From positions 1 to 50,696 of the forward strand of contig CAZWEF010000004.1 in the NCBI GenBank assembly GCA_964632125.1: 50,696 bases of DNA. Reading direction: 5' to 3'. Under the pieces are notes generated by a model that worked only from the letters and a program-made list of their open reading frames with translations, had not been told where the DNA came from and searched no databases. The DNA comes from an uncultured Erysipelotrichales bacterium (GTDB lineage: Bacteria; Bacillota_I; Bacilli_A; Erysipelotrichales; CAZWEF01). Of this stretch, positions 4,440 through 14,861 are shown in pieces. How positions within the stretch are numbered: the stretch's first letter is position 1; every line of letters starts with the position of its first letter. A program made the position numbers and the translations under genes.

Positions 4440-6257
4440 CTACTCAGTTGTAACTTTATATTGTCGTTTACGTTCATTTTCTTTTAAGAACTTTTTACGA
4501 ATACGAATGTTTTGAGGCGTGACTTCAACGAGTTCATCATCTGCGATGTAATCGAGACTTAGCTCTAGAGTCATGTCTCTATTTTTCTTTAATACAATGG
4601 TACTGTCTTTAGAGGCAGAACGCATATTGGTCATTTGTTTGTTTCTTACAACATTAACTGTTAAGTCATTTTCACGGTTATTTTCGCCAACAATCATACC
4701 TTCATAAACTTCAGTTCCTGGTGATACAAAGAGGATTCCGCGGTCTTCTAATTGACCAATACCATACATGGTCGCTTTACCGTTTTCCATTGAAATGAGT
4801 GCACCACGGTTACGTTTTCCAAGTTCATCTTTTGTGTAAGGGCGATAATCTAAGAAAGTATGTGAAATCATCCCGTATCCTTTTGTTTGCGTCATGAAAT
4901 CACTCATAAAGCCAATTAAACCACGAGAAGGGATGGTATAATGAACACGCACTTGATTGTTTACAGTAATCATATCTTCCATAATACCTTTACGAACACC
5001 AAGTTGTTCAATAACTGATCCAATCGTATCTTCAGGCGCGTCAATTTGAACAGATTCATAAGGTTCACAAACAACACCCTCAATTGTTTTCAAGATAACT
5101 TGAGGTTTAGATACTTGAAGCTCAAATCCAGCACGTCTCATGTTTTCAATCAAAATTGAAAGATGAAGTTCACCACGTCCAGATACAATCCAAGATTCAC
5201 TATTATCAACACGTTCAACAAGTAAGCTAACATCTTTTTGAGTTTCTTTAAATAAGTAATCTTCAATTTGTCTTGCAGTAACAAATTTACCTTCTTGACC
5301 AGATAAAGGACTTGTATTTGTGCCAAAAGTCATTTTAAGAGTTGGTTCATCAATATGAATATGAGGCAATGGATTTTCAAACCCAGGCTCACAAACAGTT
5401 TCACCAACACTGATGTCACTTAAACCAGATAAAGCAATGATTTGACCTGCAGAGGCAGTTTCAAGTTCAACTTTATGTAAACCAAAGAAACCAAAAATCT
5501 TTTGTACACGGAAACTTTTAGTTGAACCATCAAGTCTTACACAACTCACCATTTGATTGACACTGACACTACCTTCGCGAATAAGGCCAATGCCAATACG
5601 GCCTACATAGTCGTTGTAATCCAGCAAAGCTGGTTGAAATCTTAAATGCCCATCAACAACTACTTTTGGACTTGGAATGGTACTTATAATGGTTTCAAAC
5701 ACAGCATTCATACTCTCTTCTTGTGTGTTCACATCCATATCGATACTTGATGTTCCTTTAAGTCCTGAAGCATAAACAACTTGGAAATCTAATTGTTCAT
5801 CTGTCGCATCAAGTTCCACAAATAAATCAAACACTTCATCAAGTACTTCAATGATACGGGCATTAGGGCGATCCACTTTGTTGATCACAACAATGGGTTT
5901 AACGTTTGCTTCCAATGCTTTTTTTAGTACGAAGCGGGTTTGTGGCATGGTGCCTTCATAAGCGTCAACAACAAGTAAGACACCATCAACCATATTCATA
6001 ATTCTTTCTACTTCTCCACCAAAATCAGCATGTCCTGGTGTATCAAGAATATTAATACGATAGTCTTTATAATCGATGGCAGTCGTTTTAGCTAAAATGG
6101 TAATACCACGTTCTTTTTCAATGTCATTATTATCCATAACTCTTTGTTCAACCATCTCATTGTTTCTAAACAAACCAGATTGTCTTAATAATTGATCCAC
6201 GAGTGTTGTTTTTCCGTGGTCAACGTGTGCAATAATTGCAATATTTCTAATATTCAT
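4440..6257 (-). CDS. typA: Translational GTPase TypA/BipA
   Basis: [35 protein letters not shown]. Confidence 0.98.
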
Positions 6258-6751: not shown

Positions 6752-6827
6752 GCTTGAATAGCTCAGTTGGTAGAGCAATCGGCTGTTAACCGATCGGTCG
6801 TAGGTTCGAGTCCTACTTCAAGCGCCA
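6752..6827 (+). tRNA. tRNA-Asn(GTT)
   Basis: Acceptor GCTTGAA/TTCAAGC, anticodon arm ATCGG-CT-GTT-AA-CCGAT, TTCGA loop, CCA. Confidence 0.97.
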
Positions 6828-6829
6828 TT

Positions 6830-6906
6830 GGCTCGTTGGTGAAGTGGCTTAACACAGCGCCCTTTCACGGCGTCATTCACGGGTTCGAATCCCGTACGAG
6901 TCACCA
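6830..6906 (+). tRNA. tRNA-Glu(TTC)
   Basis: Acceptor GGCTCGT/ACGAGTC, anticodon arm GCGCC-CT-TTC-AC-GGCGT, TTCGAAT, CCA. Confidence 0.97.
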
Positions 6907-6910
6907 TTTA

Positions 6911-6937
6911 AAAGACACATCGAAAGATGTTTTTTTT
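6911..6937 (+). terminator. Terminator after the tRNA pair
   Basis: ACATC-GAAA-GATGT plus T run. Confidence 0.75.
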
Positions 6938-6938
6938 A

Positions 6939-6967
6939 TTGCTTTTTTAAGAATGAAGTGCTATTAT
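6939..6967 (+). promoter_or_regulatory. sigmaA promoter of the riboswitch/antiporter operon
   Basis: TTGCTT-17 bp-TATTAT with TG extended -10. Confidence 0.7.
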
Positions 6968-6972
6968 TTCTA

Positions 6973-7026
6973 TAGGAAATGATGTCTTCCTTGTACAACT
7001 AAACCGCGATAGCTGATGACGTCTAC
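6973..7026 (+). ncRNA. Fluoride riboswitch (crcB motif)
   Basis: P1 AGGAA/TTCCT enclosing ATGATGTC; AAACCGC-GATA-GCTGATGAC; pseudoknot GATGTC/GACGTC; 3' CTAC. Confidence 0.9.
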
Positions 7027-7051
7027 TTTTTTAAGTAGGTCATCTTTTTTT
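7015..7051 (+). terminator. Riboswitch expression-platform terminator
   Basis: GATGAC-(GT)-CTACTT / AAGTAG-GTCATC followed by T7; the 5' arm is the aptamer's 3' pseudoknot strand. Confidence 0.85.
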
Positions 7052-7059
7052 ATGGAGGT

Positions 7060-8238
7060 ATGATGATGATATATGATTTGGGAAAGGTATTGGTATTAGG
7101 TGTTGTGGTTGGTTGGTTATTTTCTAAGGTTAAGCTACCAAGTTTACTTGGTATGTTAATTGTTGGTATGATGATTGGACCTTATGGATTTGGGCTTCTA
7201 AATGGTGCTTTATTGGATATTTCAGCAGAGTTAAGACAAGTTGCACTCATTGTCATTTTGACGCGTGCTGGTCTAGGGATGGATGTTCAAAAAATCAAAA
7301 AACTTGGTTTAGCAGCCTTACTTATGTGCTTTTTGCCAGCAGTTTTTGAAATTGTTGCGGTTACTATTTTATCTAGTTTATTGTTTCATTTCTCAATTAT
7401 AGATGGTATGATTTTAGGGAGTATTCTAAGTGCAGTATCGCCAGCTATTATTGTTCCTAGGATGCTTCATCTAAAGGAGCAACCAAATATTAATCAAGAC
7501 ATTGTTCAACTTGTTTTAACAGGTGCATCGCTCGATGATGTGTTTGTACTAGTCGTGTTTAGTAGTCTAGTTTCAATTCGGCTGACAGGTCAGTTTGATG
7601 TCAGTCAGCTAAGTGTTGTACCAATTTCAATCATGACTGGTATCGTCATTGGTGCTCTTTTTGGGAAACTACTTTCAATTGTGTCAAAAGTAGGTGCATT
7701 GAAGGTTCAAACGATGATTGTTTTACTATTTGGTATGAGTTTGTTCTTGTTAGGTGTTGAAAAACAATTGCCATTTGCATTTTCAGCCATGGTTGCCATC
7801 ATTGTACAAAGTTTAGTCCTTGTGATGCAATCACCTCATTTACAAAGCCCACTTGACAAGGCCTATCAAACGTTTTGGCAAGGTGCAGAAGTATGGTTGT
7901 TTGTACTGGTAGGTTGTTTACTCGATTTTCGTCTCATTTTAACTTATGGACTTCTAGCGGCAGCGCTTGTTTTGGGTGCACTCTTGATTCGTATGGTTGG
8001 TGTTTTTGTTAGCTTAATGCCAACTTCTTTTACGCCAAAACATAAGATTTATACCATGATGTCTTATATACCAAAAGCAACTGTTCAGGCCGCAATTGGA
8101 GCCATTCCACTATCATTAGGCTTTCAAACAGGTCAATTGATGTTGGTCTTATCTGTTTTAGCTATTTTGATTTCAGCACCATTAGGGGCATGGATAATGG
8201 ATCATTTTTCTTATTTAGCTATTAATAAGGAGGTATAG
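7060..8238 (+). CDS. Cation:proton antiporter, NHA/SLC9B-like
   Basis: Highly hydrophobic; ILTRAGL, AVSPAIIVP, GASLDD di-Asp, FVLVG, PKATVQAAIG motifs. Confidence 0.88.
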   Translation: MMMIYDLGKVLVLGVVVGWLFSKVKLPSLLGMLIVGMMIGPYGFGLLNGALLDISAELRQVALIVILTRAGLGMDVQKIKKLGLAALLMCFLPAVFEIVAVTILSSLLFHFSIIDGMILGSILSAVSPAIIVPRMLHLKEQPNINQDIVQLVLTGASLDDVFVLVVFSSLVSIRLTGQFDVSQLSVVPISIMTGIVIGALFGKLLSIVSKVGALKVQTMIVLLFGMSLFLLGVEKQLPFAFSAMVAIIVQSLVLVMQSPHLQSPLDKAYQTFWQGAEVWLFVLVGCLLDFRLILTYGLLAAALVLGALLIRMVGVFVSLMPTSFTPKHKIYTMMSYIPKATVQAAIGAIPLSLGFQTGQLMLVLSVLAILISAPLGAWIMDHFSYLAINKEV

Positions 8239-8239
8239 T

Positions 8240-9958
8240 ATGTTTTCATTGTTGAGGTTTGCAAAAGAGTATCGGTTTCAAATGATTGTTGGGCCTTTTT
8301 TTAAGTTTCTAGAAGCTGTCTTAGAGTTGTTTATACCTATTATGATGGCACAATTAATTGATCAAGGTATTCATCAAAACAACATGGATTTTGTTTTAAG
8401 GAAAGGTGTCGTTATTTTGGTTATATCCCTAGTTGGGTTGGTTTCGGTTTTTATTTGTCAGTATTTAGCCTCTATTGCTTCGCAAGGCTTTGGTACGAAC
8501 CTTAGAAACGAACTTGTTAAACACATGCATCACTTATCATTAACTGACCTTGACCATTTAAAAGAAGGAAAAATGTTGTCACTGGTAACCAGTGATGTCA
8601 ACCAAATGCAATTGATGTTGGCCATGTTAATTCGCTTGGTTGTGAGAGCACCTTTCTTAAGTTTAGGGGCATTGATTATGGCATTTTATATCAACTCACA
8701 AATGGCTATGATTTTTGTGATGGTATTACCTATTTTTGGGTTAATGCTCTGGTTAACAATTAAACTAACACGACCTATGTTCAAAAAAGTTCAAAGACAA
8801 CTCGATCAATACATTGGTCTTATTACTGAAACATTGGGTGGTGTGCGTGTTATCCGTGCGTTTGGTAAAAGTCAACATCAAAAAGAACGTGTGATGGAAG
8901 CAAGCGATGATTTAGCACGTTTATCTATTCGCGCGAACCGATTAGCGAGTTTAATCAACCCTCTTACAACACTCACTTTAAATATTGGTATCATGCTTAT
9001 TTTACAATTATCAGGGCAACAAGTGATGATTGGACATATGACTCAAGGAGATGTGCTTGCACTCATCAATTACATGTCACAAATGCTTTTGGCATTGATT
9101 ATTGTTTCTCAACTCGTTGTCATCTTTACACGGGCATCTGCTTCTGCTTCAAGGATTGAAGAGGTCTTGTCGATGAAACCATCGATGATTGATCAAAAAA
9201 CAGCACACCCACTCTCAGCTATTGTTCAATTAGAAGCAAATGAACTATCATTTCGCTATGGTCGTAGTAAAGACATACTTAAACAAATTAATCTAACGAT
9301 AAAACAAGGTGAAGTACTGGGGATTACGGGACCAACAGGAAGCGGGAAAAGTACACTCGGTTATGTGCTTGGAAGATTGTATGATGCTGATAGTGGTCAT
9401 GTTTGTATCAATCACATTAATATTCAACAATATGCGATTCAAGACTTAAGAAGAAAAATTGCCTATGTACCTCAAGATACCATTTTATTTACTGGCACAA
9501 TCGCAAGTAACCTTCGCATAGGCAAGCCGGATGCGACCATTGAGGAAATGGAAAAAGCACTCGAAATAGCACAATGCCTTTCATTTGTTCGATCACTTTC
9601 AAGAGGACTTGAGGCACCAGTTGTAGAAGGAGGTAAAAACTTCTCAGGAGGACAAAAACAGCGTGTTGCAATTGCTCGTGCACTTGTTGGTCAACCACAA
9701 TTATTAATTTTAGATGATGCTTTAAGTGCTTTGGATTATCAAACGGATAAGTTATTAAGGACGGCATTAAAAACGGAGTTGAAAGAGACGATGGTTGTGG
9801 TTATCTCACAACGCATTAGCAGTATTGTTGACGCTGATCAAATCTTGGTTTTACAAGAAGGGGAAACAGTTCAAATGGGAACCCATCAAGAACTCATGAG
9901 AACGTGTTCACTTTATAAAGATATGGTGATGCTTCAAACAAAGGCGGTGAACGCATGA
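8240..9958 (+). CDS. Heterodimeric ABC exporter, subunit 1 (TMD-NBD, degenerate Walker B)
   Basis: GPTGSGKS, FSGGQKQR, LILDD in place of DE. Confidence 0.92.
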   Translation: MFSLLRFAKEYRFQMIVGPFFKFLEAVLELFIPIMMAQLIDQGIHQNNMDFVLRKGVVILVISLVGLVSVFICQYLASIASQGFGTNLRNELVKHMHHLSLTDLDHLKEGKMLSLVTSDVNQMQLMLAMLIRLVVRAPFLSLGALIMAFYINSQMAMIFVMVLPIFGLMLWLTIKLTRPMFKKVQRQLDQYIGLITETLGGVRVIRAFGKSQHQKERVMEASDDLARLSIRANRLASLINPLTTLTLNIGIMLILQLSGQQVMIGHMTQGDVLALINYMSQMLLALIIVSQLVVIFTRASASASRIEEVLSMKPSMIDQKTAHPLSAIVQLEANELSFRYGRSKDILKQINLTIKQGEVLGITGPTGSGKSTLGYVLGRLYDADSGHVCINHINIQQYAIQDLRRKIAYVPQDTILFTGTIASNLRIGKPDATIEEMEKALEIAQCLSFVRSLSRGLEAPVVEGGKNFSGGQKQRVAIARALVGQPQLLILDDALSALDYQTDKLLRTALKTELKETMVVVISQRISSIVDADQILVLQEGETVQMGTHQELMRTCSLYKDMVMLQTKAVNA

Positions 9959-11673
9959 AACAATTTATGTCGCTTTTTAAAACACATAAACGATACGTCA
10001 TGTTCATTATTGTTGTTGGATTAATGATTGGTGTTACCTCCGTTTTATTAACATTCCTTATTGGCCGTGGGATTGATATGATGATTGGGAAAGGCATGGT
10101 GGACTTTAAACAACTTGGCGTATACGTTATGTATATGATGCTTGTCCTCGCAGTGAATGTTGTGATGCAATGGTGTTTGATCCATATGACAAATGGTTTA
10201 TCCTTTAAACTTGTGCATGAACTCAGAACAAAGGCCATAGAGCAACTCTCTTTATCCGGTATTGCATTTTATGATCAACATGCACATGGTGATCTTGTTA
10301 GTCGTTTTACGACAGATTTAGAAAGTTTGGCTGACGCGTTGGTTGCTCTTTTCTCAAGCTTATTTCCAGGTATTTCAATTATTATCATCAGTTTGGTATT
10401 TATGATACAGTCAAGTATTTGGTTAATGTGGGTTATTGTGTTAACCACACCGCTCATTTTTATTGCAGCATTCGTGGTCGCAAAGTTATCTCAAAAAAAC
10501 TTTAGACAACAACAAACTCATAATGGCCGTTTAACAGGCTATATCCATGAGATGTTTCATGGCTATCGTATTGTCAACATGTTTGGTTACGAACAAAGTG
10601 TTATCGATACCTATGAAGCATTGAACCTTGATCTTAAATATTGGGGACAAAAAGCGCAGTTCACATCCTCAATCACTAACCCCTTAACACGCTTTGTTAG
10701 TCACTTAACTTATTTATTGATTGGTGTTGTCGGTGGCTATTTAATGATTGTTTTAAAAGACCCAACAATGACTGTTGGCGTAATTACAAGCTTTTTGCTT
10801 TACTCAAGTCAGTTTTCAAAACCTTTTGTTGAATTGTCAGGTATCGCAACACAAATTCAATCAGGTGTGGTTGGTTATCAACGTATTCAAAGTGTTATTC
10901 ATGAACCAATCTTTGAGCATGCTGATGGTAAAACCTTAACCAATATTAAAGGAGAAGTTGCTTTTTCTCATGTTTCGTTTGGATATGATCAATCAAAACG
11001 CATTTTAAATGATTTGAGTTTACACGTAATGCCAGGTCAAACAGTGGCCATTGTTGGTGAAACAGGATCGGGAAAAACGACAATGGTTAATTTGTTGATG
11101 CGGTTCTATGATTTAGATGAAGGGATGATTTACATTGATGGAGAGCCCTTTACACACTATACAAAAAACAGTGTTAGACAAGCCTTTGGTATGGTGCTTC
11201 AAGATACTTGGCTGATGTCAGGGACAATTAAGGAAAACATTGCATATGGTCGCCCAGATGCAACAATGGAAGAGATTATTCGTGTCTCAAAAGAAGCCTA
11301 TATTCACCATTTCATTGAGCGTTTACCGGATGGATATGATACATTGATTGGTGGTCACGGCATCCATTTGTCATCTGGACAAAAACAACTCATGACCATT
11401 GCAAGAACCATGCTTTCAAATCCAACCATGCTTATTTTAGATGAAGCGACAAGTTATGTGGATCCCTTAACAGAACGTCATATTCAAAGTGCCTTTTTAA
11501 AATTAATGAAAAATAAAACCAGTTTTGTTATTGCGCATCGACTCAGTACCATTCAAGATGCTGACTTGATTCTTGTGATGAAACATGGTCAAATGATTGA
11601 AGTTGGTCAACATCAAGAATTGCTTGATTTAAAAGGTTATTACTATGATTTGTATCAAGCACAGTTTTCATGA
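9955..11673 (+). CDS. Heterodimeric ABC exporter, subunit 2 (TMD-NBD)
   Basis: GETGSGKT, LSSGQKQL, ILDEATS, IAHRLST; ATGA overlap with subunit 1. Confidence 0.92.
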   Translation: MKQFMSLFKTHKRYVMFIIVVGLMIGVTSVLLTFLIGRGIDMMIGKGMVDFKQLGVYVMYMMLVLAVNVVMQWCLIHMTNGLSFKLVHELRTKAIEQLSLSGIAFYDQHAHGDLVSRFTTDLESLADALVALFSSLFPGISIIIISLVFMIQSSIWLMWVIVLTTPLIFIAAFVVAKLSQKNFRQQQTHNGRLTGYIHEMFHGYRIVNMFGYEQSVIDTYEALNLDLKYWGQKAQFTSSITNPLTRFVSHLTYLLIGVVGGYLMIVLKDPTMTVGVITSFLLYSSQFSKPFVELSGIATQIQSGVVGYQRIQSVIHEPIFEHADGKTLTNIKGEVAFSHVSFGYDQSKRILNDLSLHVMPGQTVAIVGETGSGKTTMVNLLMRFYDLDEGMIYIDGEPFTHYTKNSVRQAFGMVLQDTWLMSGTIKENIAYGRPDATMEEIIRVSKEAYIHHFIERLPDGYDTLIGGHGIHLSSGQKQLMTIARTMLSNPTMLILDEATSYVDPLTERHIQSAFLKLMKNKTSFVIAHRLSTIQDADLILVMKHGQMIEVGQHQELLDLKGYYYDLYQAQFS

Positions 11674-11696
11674 AAGTACATCCGTGTACTTTTTTT
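11673..11696 (+). terminator. Terminator ending the antiporter-ABC operon
   Basis: AAAGTACA-TCCG-TGTACTTT plus T run. Confidence 0.8.
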
Positions 11697-11732
11697 AGAT
11701 TCTTTTGTATAATAAAAGAAGGAGGGATAACA

Positions 11733-12698
11733 ATGTCAAAGAATAGAGATGTAAGACGTGTTGCACTGGTAGGGACAGGATTTGTCGGTATGAGTTTTGC
11801 TTACGCATTAATTAATCAAGGTGCGGCAGATGAATTGGTTTTGATTGATATCAATCAAGAGAAGTCAATTGGAGAAGCCATGGACTTAAACCATGGTACA
11901 AGTTTTGGACCTTCAATTACCAAAGTTTTTGCAGGGACATACGACGATTGTGAATATGTTGATGTTGTTGTGATAACAGCTGGAGCGCCACAATTACCTG
12001 GTGAAACAAGATTGGATTTAGCGGCTAAGAATGCAAAAATTATCAAAGATATTACATTGAAAATAAAAGCATCAGGATTTCATGGCATGATTGTGGTTGC
12101 ATCAAACCCTGTTGATTTGATGACTTATGTGGTGGCAGAGGTTTCAGGTCTACCAAAGAATCAAGTTATTGGTTCAGGAACGACTTTGGATACATCGCGA
12201 TTACGCTATCTTCTAGGTAGTCACATCGGAATTAGTAGTAAAAATATACATGCTTACATTCTAGGTGAACATGGGGATAGTTCTTTTGTGCCTTGGTCGA
12301 ATGCTTATATTGGTACGAAAGCACTGATTCCGTATTTACAAGAGCGACATATTTACAAACAAGAAGTGCTTGATGATATTTATGTTCAAGTAAGAGATGC
12401 TGCTTATAAAATTATTGAAGCTAAAAAAGCAACCTACTATGCAATTGGGATGGCACTTGTGCGTATTGTAAAAGCTATATTTGAGGACGAAGCATCTGTT
12501 TTAACTTTGTCAGTTTATTTGAATGGTCATTATCATGTGGAAGATCTTTACATTGGTGTGCCAGCTGTTTTAACAAGACATGGCGTTAAAGAAATCATTC
12601 AATTAGATTTGACAATTGAAGAGCAAAAGCAATTTGAGGCGTCAGTAAATAAACTTAAAGACGTATTAGAAACGACGATTAAACCTATATTAAGATAA
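11733..12698 (+). CDS. ldh: L-lactate dehydrogenase (true start ATG 11733)
   Basis: GTGFVG, ITAGAPQLPGETRLDL, ASNPVD, GTTLDTSR, GEHGDS; SD AAGGAGGG. Confidence 0.96.
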   Translation: MSKNRDVRRVALVGTGFVGMSFAYALINQGAADELVLIDINQEKSIGEAMDLNHGTSFGPSITKVFAGTYDDCEYVDVVVITAGAPQLPGETRLDLAAKNAKIIKDITLKIKASGFHGMIVVASNPVDLMTYVVAEVSGLPKNQVIGSGTTLDTSRLRYLLGSHIGISSKNIHAYILGEHGDSSFVPWSNAYIGTKALIPYLQERHIYKQEVLDDIYVQVRDAAYKIIEAKKATYYAIGMALVRIVKAIFEDEASVLTLSVYLNGHYHVEDLYIGVPAVLTRHGVKEIIQLDLTIEEQKQFEASVNKLKDVLETTIKPILR

Positions 12699-12945: not shown

Positions 12946-13617
12946 ATGAAAGTCTTAGTTGTAGAAGATGATACTCGTATTAATGAAAGCCTAAAACACA
13001 TTTTAGAGCGAGATTTTCAGGTTGAAACGGCGTACAATGGAGAAGAAGGTCTTTTTCTTGCAAAAGAAAGTGAGTTTGATTTACTAATTTTAGATGTGAT
13101 GATGCCAGGTATGGATGGGTTTGAACTGCTTGAGGCTTATCGCAAACACAACAAACGAACACCAGTTATTTTTGTTACTGGAAAAGACCAACTAGAAGAT
13201 CGCATTCAAGGTTACCGATTAGAATGTGATGACTATATCATTAAGCCATTTGATGAAGAGGAACTTTTGCTCAGAATTAAGGCAGTTTTGAAAAGACAAG
13301 ATAAAAATCAAATACTAAGATTTGAAGAGTTAGAGCTTCATGCTAGCAGTCGTACACTTAAAGCAAATGGGCAGGTCATTGAGCTTAGAGGAAGACAATA
13401 TGAGCTGTTGGAATACTTACTTTTAAATAAGAACCGTATTCTTTCAAAAGAACAAATTTTTGATCGCATTTGGGGTATTGATTCAGATACGGGAATTAAT
13501 GTTGTAGAAGTTTATTCACATGCGATTAGAAATCACTTAAAACAATTAGGGTGTGCACATTATTTAAGAACCATTCGTGGTATAGGTTATATGATGCGTG
13601 CTGTAAAGAATACGTAA
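12946..13617 (+). CDS. OmpR-family response regulator, CiaR-like
   Basis: VVEDD, LDVMMP, IKPF; IFDRIWGIDSDTGINVVEVY resembles CiaR. Confidence 0.92.
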   Translation: MKVLVVEDDTRINESLKHILERDFQVETAYNGEEGLFLAKESEFDLLILDVMMPGMDGFELLEAYRKHNKRTPVIFVTGKDQLEDRIQGYRLECDDYIIKPFDEEELLLRIKAVLKRQDKNQILRFEELELHASSRTLKANGQVIELRGRQYELLEYLLLNKNRILSKEQIFDRIWGIDSDTGINVVEVYSHAIRNHLKQLGCAHYLRTIRGIGYMMRAVKNT

Positions 13618-13622
13618 TTTAA

Positions 13623-14861
13623 ATGACAAAGCATCAACAACGTATTTGGCTTACTTACTTTGTTTCTTTTGCTTTTTTGGTTGGCTTCTTTTCGTTTAGT
13701 ATTTTTGAGGTGGTTAAAAGTCAAGAATCACATCGACATGAAGCAACACTAAAAGCACAATTTGAACAGCTTCAAACGCAAGTCCTTTCAACACCAATGA
13801 CCTTAACGGATTTGTCTATTTTCATGACGCAAAATCGAATGCTTGGACAAATATACAATGAGGATTTTCAACTTTTACCAAGCTATATTTATTCAAATAT
13901 TGATGTCACTTTAACATCAAAAGAAATAAAAACCAATACCATGATAAACTTTAAAATTAATGTTGAGGGAACGACATTTTATTTGCCAGGTATATTATAT
14001 CCTGCAACCTTTCAAAATCGTACTTATTATGTTTTGTTGTTGTCAAAAAACATAGATAGCCTAGATTTGTTAAACCACTTAAAACAAGTGTTGTTTTATG
14101 GCAGTGCACTCGTCATTGTAGCAGGTATACTGATGAGCTATTTTGTTTCTAAAAAGAGCATGAAACCTATTTATTTGTCATGGAAAAAGCAACAACAGTT
14201 TACCCATGATGCCAGTCACGAGCTAAGAACACCAATCACTGTAATCATGTTAAAAGCTGATAAGCTATTAAAACATCAAGATGGGATCATTGAGGATCAT
14301 ATTGAAGATGTCATTGCGATTAAAAATGAAGGTCGTCGTATGAAAAAACAAGTTGAAGATTTGTTGCTTTTATCAAGAGGCGATAGTGGTATGTTGGTCC
14401 TTGATGTTGTTCAAGTTAGTATTGAAGATGAAATCATGGCATGTTTTAATGTATTTGAAGAACTTGTTGAAGTAAGTGGTAAAAAACTGTTAACTGAGTT
14501 GAACTTCAATCCAATGCTACAAATAGATGTTGAACGATTTAAGCAAATTCTAATGATTTTACTTGATAATGCTTTAAAGTACACCCCGGATGGAGGAACT
14601 ATTTGGATTAAAACAAGTAAGTCAGGGCATCGGTTGAAACTAGATGTTATCAATTCAAGTCCTCCAATTGAGGATAAACATTTGTCACATCTGTTTGAAC
14701 GTTTTTATCAAGTTGATACAAGTAGAAGTGATCAATCTTCAGGCCTTGGACTAGCGATTGCAAAGCAACTTGTTTTATTACATCACGGTAGTATTCATGT
14801 GAGCAATACTGATGAAGGGGTTTGTTTCACAGTTTATTTAAATGTTATAAGGAACCACTAG
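13623..14861 (+). CDS. Sensor histidine kinase, CiaH-like
   Basis: Two TM helices, DASHELRTP H-box, LLDNALKY N-box, RFYQVD, SGLGLAIA. Confidence 0.92.
   Translation: MTKHQQRIWLTYFVSFAFLVGFFSFSIFEVVKSQESHRHEATLKAQFEQLQTQVLSTPMTLTDLSIFMTQNRMLGQIYNEDFQLLPSYIYSNIDVTLTSKEIKTNTMINFKINVEGTTFYLPGILYPATFQNRTYYVLLLSKNIDSLDLLNHLKQVLFYGSALVIVAGILMSYFVSKKSMKPIYLSWKKQQQFTHDASHELRTPITVIMLKADKLLKHQDGIIEDHIEDVIAIKNEGRRMKKQVEDLLLLSRGDSGMLVLDVVQVSIEDEIMACFNVFEELVEVSGKKLLTELNFNPMLQIDVERFKQILMILLDNALKYTPDGGTIWIKTSKSGHRLKLDVINSSPPIEDKHLSHLFERFYQVDTSRSDQSSGLGLAIAKQLVLLHHGSIHVSNTDEGVCFTVYLNVIRNH

Follow-up and report, generated by a model that had tools for sequence, protein, structure and literature searches.

Does an ATP-driven exporter encoded directly behind a fluoride riboswitch take part in the defence against fluoride? 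The question is raised by a 50,696-nt stretch of DNA from an uncultured Erysipelotrichales bacterium (contig CAZWEF010000004.1 of assembly GCA_964632125.1, hereafter the window), in which a fluoride riboswitch is followed by the gene of an NHA-type cation:proton antiporter and then by the two genes of a heterodimeric ATP-binding cassette (ABC) exporter, ABC1 and ABC2. Bacterial fluoride defence has so far been explained by Fluc channels, CLC-F F−/H+ antiporters and pH homeostasis. Fluoride-riboswitch operons encoding Na+/H+ antiporters are already known (Baker et al. 2012, as reviewed in PMC11139923; CD0656-7 of C. difficile, PMC11477304), and a 2024 review, which ranks these antiporters as the second commonest class of riboswitch-associated genes, makes no mention of ABC transporters (PMC11139923). 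In the literature that we searched, no paper connects heterodimeric ABC exporters with fluoride riboswitches. What sets this locus apart is the ABC pair behind the cassette, the riboswitch-antiporter unit itself being known.

The initial annotation of this DNA interpreted the locus as a three-component fluoride-response module, in which the exporter would, for example, expel a fluorinated or stress metabolite or remodel membrane permeability. We describe here the anatomy of the locus, the family assignments of its products, its distribution among genomes and the phylogeny of the exporter. On balance, we consider it probable that the locus is a single riboswitch-led unit, whose exporter is fluoride-inducible through transcriptional read-through and yet is a lineage-specific, probably acquired passenger.

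A compact unit behind a fluoride riboswitch

The unit consists of the following elements.

6966-7032, + strand: fluoride riboswitch aptamer (crcB motif, RF01734; 46.9 bits, E 5.7e-10)
~7015-7043 (hairpin; to 7050 with the tail), + strand: intrinsic terminator that serves as expression platform and ends in a U7 tail (-12.5 kcal/mol, z -4.5)
7060-8238, + strand: NHA/CPA2-type cation:proton antiporter, 392 aa (PF00999, 4.2e-34; stop codon TAG at 8236-8238)
8240-9958, + strand: ABC1, a TM287-like half-transporter with transmembrane and nucleotide-binding domains (PF00664 + PF00005; 3qf4_A (TM287), 1.1e-121)
9955-11673, + strand: ABC2, a TM288-like half-transporter with the same two domains (PF00664 + PF00005; 3qf4_B (TM288), 1.9e-123)

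The aptamer scores above the RF01734 gathering score of 34 bits, with model positions 1-64 fully matched, and a search with RF01734 returned this copy as the sole fluoride riboswitch of the 2.07-Mb genome (98.9% complete). The terminator hairpin (GAUGAC..CUACUU/AAGUAGGUCAUC, followed by U7) was equalled in stability by none of 200 shuffled sequences, and its 5' arm is the 3' pseudoknot strand of the aptamer, GAUGACGUCUAC, which lies within the aptamer match. The predicted layout is that of a transcriptional ON switch, with the terminator competing for the 3' pseudoknot strand of the aptamer.

The genes behind this switch are packed very tightly. A single nucleotide separates the antiporter stop codon from the ABC1 start codon (ATG 8240), the AGGAGG of ABC1 is located inside the 3' end of the antiporter gene, and ABC1 and ABC2 overlap by ATGA at 9955-9958. 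Both junctions (stop at 8238 and ATG at 8240; ATGA overlap) had been described in this way by the initial annotation, which also stated that no intergenic room exists for a promoter or terminator; this holds, with junctions of 1 nt and -4 nt and with scans that returned no internal signals. On the + strand, a consensus scan found no promoter-like site of at least 9/12 in 7173-8684, and promoter-like matches over the region numbered 17, against 24.5 in shuffles. In a separate scan for extended -10 elements, the operon promoter (-10 at 6962) was joined only by two weak sites near the start of the antiporter gene, whose last 800 nt have none. No convincing terminator was found inside the unit by sequence scan, and the operon is first followed by a terminator-like hairpin at ~11672-11699, in agreement with the position of 11673 given earlier for the first terminator.

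Because neither a promoter nor a terminator would have room between the genes, and because the junction between antiporter and exporter genes is tight in three sequence variants (described below), RNA polymerase is likely to read through into the ABC genes in a fluoride-dependent manner. Co-transcription and fluoride induction of ABC1 and ABC2 are the most likely reading of this layout, as predicted from sequence.

The antiporter and the exporter pair

The antiporter belongs to the gene class that is typically found with fluoride riboswitches. Its closest solved structure is NHA2/SLC9B2 (3e-28), and its DD motif (SLDDVF), with D159 and D160, is invariant in 16 aligned homologues. The Shine-Dalgarno sequence GGAGG (7054-7058) ends only 1 nt before the first ATG at 7060, which makes ATG 7063 or 7066 probably the true start; the public protein cluster gives a length of 391 aa for this antiporter.

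ABC1 and ABC2 share 29% identity, and their ATP-binding motifs are asymmetric. In ABC1, the Walker B motif is degenerate (LLILDD, with Asp for the catalytic Glu), Gln replaces the switch His (ISQR), and the signature motif is the canonical FSGGQ. ABC2 keeps the catalytic Walker B (LILDE) and the H-loop (IAHR), and its deviant signature motif, LSSGQ, completes the degenerate site with ABC1. The consensus ATP site is that of ABC2 LILDE and IAHR with ABC1 FSGGQ. An identical motif set is present in L039, a metagenomic relative of the locus. The pair is thus, as judged from its motifs and structure matches, a TM287/288-type heterodimeric exporter with one degenerate ATP site, and the label given to it at the outset was correct.

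Among solved structures, ABC1 matches TM287 of Thermotoga maritima best, and among heterodimers ABC2 matches TM288 best (PDB 3qf4, 4q4a, 6quz). The likeness extends to the Asp and Gln replacements in subunit 1 and the deviant signature motif in subunit 2, which are shared with the window pair. We know of no case in which TM287/288 sits behind a riboswitch, as the window pair does. BmrCD of Bacillus subtilis (YheI/YheH) and the Enterococcus/Lactococcus heterodimers EfrCD and LmrCD belong to the same class, EfrCD (7ocy) being a more distant match to the window pair (7e-98 and 2.5e-109). For bmrCD, control is by attenuation of transcription within the bmrB leader. At the window locus, in contrast, the attenuator is the fluoride riboswitch, no leader peptide is present, and the antiporter gene lies between switch and exporter. 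The ABC proteins reached none of the NCBIfam equivalog cut-offs (MsbA, SmdAB, CydDC, Tet(46) and others), and for this reason no particular substrate class can be assigned to them. Two further heterodimeric exporter loci are present in the genome, on contigs C35 and C3.

Riboswitch-antiporter pairs in other genomes

Three sets of genomes were surveyed for the arrangement. Eighteen of 60 genomes from the same order carry a fluoride riboswitch, and the 7 kb downstream of each was examined. The next gene is an antiporter homologue (36-44% identical) at 16 of these 18 riboswitches, and no ABC1 or ABC2 homologue is present at any of the 18 loci. The best ABC1 homologues of the riboswitch-bearing relatives (39-45% identical) are encoded either on a different contig from the riboswitch or at a distance of over 100 kb from it. 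In two genomes of the order, G018 and G042, the riboswitch is followed by CLC, which in G042 is split by stop codons. In a sample of 400 Bacilli genomes, 78 have the riboswitch, and 60 newly fetched sites were examined: the antiporter is directly behind the riboswitch at 54 of them, CrcB-size open reading frames take that place at two (the pair in L182 is CrcB by Pfam, that in L178 by reading-frame sizes alone), and a type IV exporter is found behind the riboswitch at none of the 60. The third set comprises the 80 best antiporter homologues in species-representative genomes, found with an alignment query and spanning Lachnospiraceae, Oscillospiraceae, Erysipelotrichaceae, Bacteroidales, Brachyspira and others. 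A fluoride riboswitch lies just upstream of 62 of these 80 (59 detected with a custom covariance model biased to GGGAATGAAGTT-type aptamers and three more, L114, L140 and L152, with the Rfam model), and the window ABC pair accompanies none of the 62.

Riboswitch and antiporter therefore form a known, widespread and recurrent unit, with which the locus shares an above-cut-off aptamer, a terminator-type ON platform and the antiporter gene. The two type IV ABC half-transporter genes behind the antiporter are found only in the window lineage and are absent from ~130 other riboswitch-antiporter loci. The three-component module proposed by the initial annotation is not borne out by this comparison, the ABC pair being present at 0/16, 0/54 and 0/62 of the other riboswitch-NHA loci in the three sets.

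One locus of the third set has an ABC exporter adjoining the cassette. In L140 (5812-11310; Carnobacteriaceae bacterium 52-44), the riboswitch (43.6 bits) and the NHA gene are followed by a 133-nt spacer containing TATAAT, by a single 581-aa exporter gene whose product is 27-33% identical to the window pair, and then by genes for a GDPD phosphodiesterase and an MFS transporter. We considered L140 as an independent second case of the riboswitch-NHA-ABC order and rejected it: the exporter is single and non-orthologous, and the spacer carries a TATAAT. Since such exporter genes number 0-7 per genome, one adjacency in ~130 loci is at chance level.

The next same-strand genes behind other riboswitch-antiporter pairs are heterogeneous. 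A GH3 glycosidase gene begins 13 nt after the antiporter in L195 (1449-4496, riboswitch orientation), a flavodoxin-like gene overlaps the antiporter gene by 4 nt in L205 (1391-1894), and a GNAT gene abuts the antiporter stop codon in L211 (1405-1827). At these three loci, unrelated genes are packed behind riboswitch-NHA as tightly as the ABC pair is in the window. Other neighbours include a Y-family polymerase, an AraC regulator, a sigma factor and, once, enolase, a known fluoride target. In the f5 family (L199, L200, L213-L217, L221, L222 and L224-L226), genes for TrkA-N, TrkA-N/TrkA-C and TrkH and then a LytTR protein lie downstream, the Trk genes 60-160 nt behind riboswitch-NHA in about a dozen genomes; this assignment is by Pfam annotation for L221 and by the same reading-frame sizes for the remainder. 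This neighbourhood might link K+ uptake to the fluoride-induced antiporter. Evidently, the riboswitch-antiporter cassette comes to lie in many different settings and takes neighbouring genes with it.

The antiporter gene itself is split in L034 (genome G001), L174, L175 and L186, into, for example, 248 + 96, 278 + 128 or 133 + 287 aa, which suggests frameshifts or pseudogenes in some genomes.

Fluoride exporters in the genome and its relatives

Neither CrcB nor CLC was found in the window genome, by Pfam search or by tblastn at E <= 1, and in the absence of both Fluc/CrcB and CLC this genome differs from the known fluoride-riboswitch antiporter operons. It shares the lack with seven of the 16 same-order relatives that have the riboswitch-antiporter pair (G001, G007, G019, G029, G032, G043 and G045), so that, with the window genome included, eight of 17 such genomes have no recognisable fluoride exporter. 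None of the seven has ABC genes in its riboswitch-antiporter operon; it follows that the ABC pair is not a specific compensation for a missing exporter. The 11 CrcB-bearing relatives of the same order are all without a fluoride riboswitch. In this order, the NHA-type antiporter may be the main determinant of fluoride tolerance.

Origin of the ABC pair and conservation of the gene order

In a maximum-likelihood tree, window ABC1 and three metagenomic relatives form one clade (100/100), which is sister to proteins of Enterococcus, Carnobacterium and Melissococcus (100/99) and is placed apart from the principal same-order clade (99/99). The identities are in line with this placement: ABC1 is 52-54% identical to the Enterococcus/Carnobacterium/Melissococcus proteins, versus 39-45% to the same-order homologues. 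The nearest named homologues include one that its source calls YheI. This placement, together with the identities, suggests that the ABC pair was acquired; differential loss of paralogues would be a less likely explanation.

The full arrangement of riboswitch, NHA and the two ABC genes is restricted to the window genome and to metagenome contigs (Logan) of one related lineage, whose proteins are 67-73% identical. The nearest antiporter relatives are 67% identical and the nearest ABC1 relatives 72-73%. The 23.5-kb contig L039 carries a tRNA 3' end, the riboswitch (47.3 bits), NHA, ABC1, ABC2, L-lactate dehydrogenase (LDH), a response regulator and a kinase, in the order of the window. Identity to the window falls from 87.5% for LDH through 78% for the response regulator, 73% for ABC and 67% for NHA to 60% for the kinase. 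The NHA-ABC1 junction exists in three sequence variants, with 1 nt in the window, 21 nt in L039 and L042 and ~15 nt in L044. Within the reference set, the window lineage is a family of its own. Its TypA is ~70% identical to the homologues of Thomasclavelia and other Bacilli and 93% identical to a metagenome protein, whose contig is not linked to L039. The gene order is thus not unique to this genome, but the count for which the initial annotation had called (one genome and one metagenomic lineage) comes close to the uniqueness that this annotation had named as speaking against its module.

Boundaries of the unit

The elements that flank the unit are listed below.

6752-6903, + strand: two tRNA genes (Rfam tRNA matches of 75.2 and 60.2 bits), which bound the unit upstream
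~6909-6938, + strand: small hairpin with T8, 3' of the tRNA genes (-8.8 kcal/mol, z -3.6)
6939-6967, + strand: probable operon promoter, TTGCTT-17-TGcTATTAT (extended -10; -10 at 6962), recognised by consensus match only
~11672-11699, + strand: weak intrinsic terminator after ABC2, a 9-bp A/U-rich stem and a U run (-7.5 kcal/mol, z -2.8)
11733-12698, + strand: LDH (NF000824, 430 bits; TIGR01771, 397 bits), the next unit downstream

Upstream of its riboswitch, L039 has the same tRNA 3' end and hairpin, followed by an equivalent promoter, TTGATT-17-TATGAT with TG, at 58-86; the terminator hairpin of its riboswitch is also the same as in the window (-11.8 kcal/mol). A tRNA gene also lies 2 nt upstream of a fluoride riboswitch in a Bacteroidales metagenome-assembled genome (L114, 1867-2006), which resembles the window. 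It may be that the riboswitch-NHA cassette repeatedly lands at, or is bounded by, tRNA genes.

At the downstream end, the hairpin after ABC2 has the sequence AAAGUACAU-CCG-UGUACUUU, followed by the U run. An open reading frame listed at 11670-12698 was considered as a fourth gene of the operon and rejected: it encodes LDH and has its likely start at 11733. The LDH gene is a separate unit, since it has its own -10 element, a perfect TATAAT at 11708-11713, and its own ribosome-binding site, AGGAGGG, ahead of ATG 11733. A perfect TATAAT precedes LDH in L039 as well (region 4819-4876). That contig has no hairpin equivalent to the post-ABC2 terminator (z +1.1), and read-through from its fluoride operon into ldh is conceivable. 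Genes for an OmpR-type response regulator and a histidine kinase lie 3' of LDH in synteny, at 12946-14861 in the window and at 6082-7993 in L039.

Alternative readings of the locus

A genuine three-component module, in which the exporter clears a fluoride-stress metabolite or remodels the membrane and the antiporter corrects cytoplasmic acidification, would fit an operon without internal signals, a junction that has stayed compact in the three lineage variants, and the position of the genome's sole fluoride riboswitch in a cell devoid of CrcB and CLC. Type IV exporters of the TM287/288, BmrCD and MsbA families do move lipids and metabolites. Such a module would nevertheless have to be reconciled with its failure to recur at the 16, 54 and 62 other loci, where a single unrelated exporter was encountered, with the seven exporter-less relatives, which carry riboswitch-NHA only and in which the antiporter alone appears sufficient, with an ABC pair that looks acquired, and with a literature in which our search found no link between heterodimeric ABC exporters and fluoride riboswitches. 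We regard the module as quite unlikely, and the same holds for its variant in which the cleared metabolite builds up after inhibition of, for example, enolase or phosphoryl transfer. The ABC pair could also be taken as the missing fluoride exporter itself, either an ATP-driven pump or a channel-like conductor of F− or of a metal-fluoride complex, given that no known fluoride exporter is detectable in the genome even at the permissive threshold, that the pair lies within the only fluoride-controlled operon, and that CFTR, a type IV ABC protein, conducts anions. This appears highly improbable: the seven equally exporter-less relatives have the operon without ABC genes, the closest homologues of the pair are ordinary YheI-type multidrug exporters of Lactobacillales, no anion-selectivity feature was seen among the sequence features examined, and the literature searched offers no precedent.

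A different objection concerns transcription rather than function. An unrecognised promoter in the 3' part of the antiporter gene could drive the ABC genes largely independently of fluoride, and the operon would then be a matter of physical packing only. Promoters inside coding sequences are common in AT-rich Firmicutes, it would be odd for a housekeeping-type exporter to be silent without fluoride, and L039 and L044 share a TTGATT-17-TAGAAT ~260 nt upstream of ABC1. We examined this element as a conserved internal promoter and rejected it, as it occurs in L039 and L044 only; in the window it is absent, the corresponding Arg codon being CGT instead of AGA. The scans described above also speak against an internal promoter, with no + strand site reaching the threshold in 7173-8684, a total below the shuffle expectation and no extended -10 in the final 800 nt of the antiporter coding sequence, and basal needs could be served by the two other heterodimeric exporters. 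An independent internal promoter is, in our estimate, unlikely without being far-fetched.

Proposed mechanism and its weak points

On this basis, we favour a riboswitch-led unit with a passenger exporter. Binding of an Mg-F complex would stabilise the aptamer and thereby block the terminator, and RNA polymerase would read into the antiporter gene and then into ABC1 and ABC2, the last two presumably being translationally coupled through the ATGA overlap. Fluoride induction of the exporter would add to leakage through the terminator. The ABC pair itself would most likely be a general exporter of the drug, lipid or peptide type from a Lactobacillales-like source, which came to lie behind the cassette in an ancestor of this small lineage. 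We infer that the pair has no dedicated role in the response to fluoride.

Several points weigh against this proposal. Co-transcription and induction are predictions from the DNA sequence, and the passenger status is argued from absent recurrence, with which a lineage-specific adaptive role would be compatible. As both CrcB and CLC are absent, some unrecognised fluoride defence must exist, and an obvious candidate for it is the ATP-driven exporter whose genes lie in the genome's sole fluoride-controlled operon. In addition, the compact arrangement has been kept over ~27-33% divergence in these proteins, and the retained junction is compatible with selection for co-expression.

Implications for fluoride biology

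These points leave some scope for a more consequential role, in which an acquired exporter was recruited into the sole fluoride-riboswitch operon of a deep-branching, Erysipelotrichales-like lineage devoid of CrcB and CLC-F and there aids fluoride tolerance. We think this doubtful, as we do the suggestion that such an exporter would expel, for example, a toxic metabolite or a metal-fluoride species. If true, this would be the first case of an ATP-driven component in a bacterial response to fluoride, and a physiological cue would be gained for heterodimeric ABC exporters, few of whose natural substrates have been established.

Under the passenger reading that we favour, the locus would clearly show, in nature, how an accident of gene order or an acquisition can bring an unrelated pump under the control of a fluoride switch. 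It also carries a caution, in that being packed tightly behind a riboswitch is not in itself enough to make a set of genes a functional module. Of more use, arguably, than the locus is the survey that it occasioned: in this order and in the Bacilli, the fluoride riboswitch almost always stands ahead of an NHA-type antiporter.

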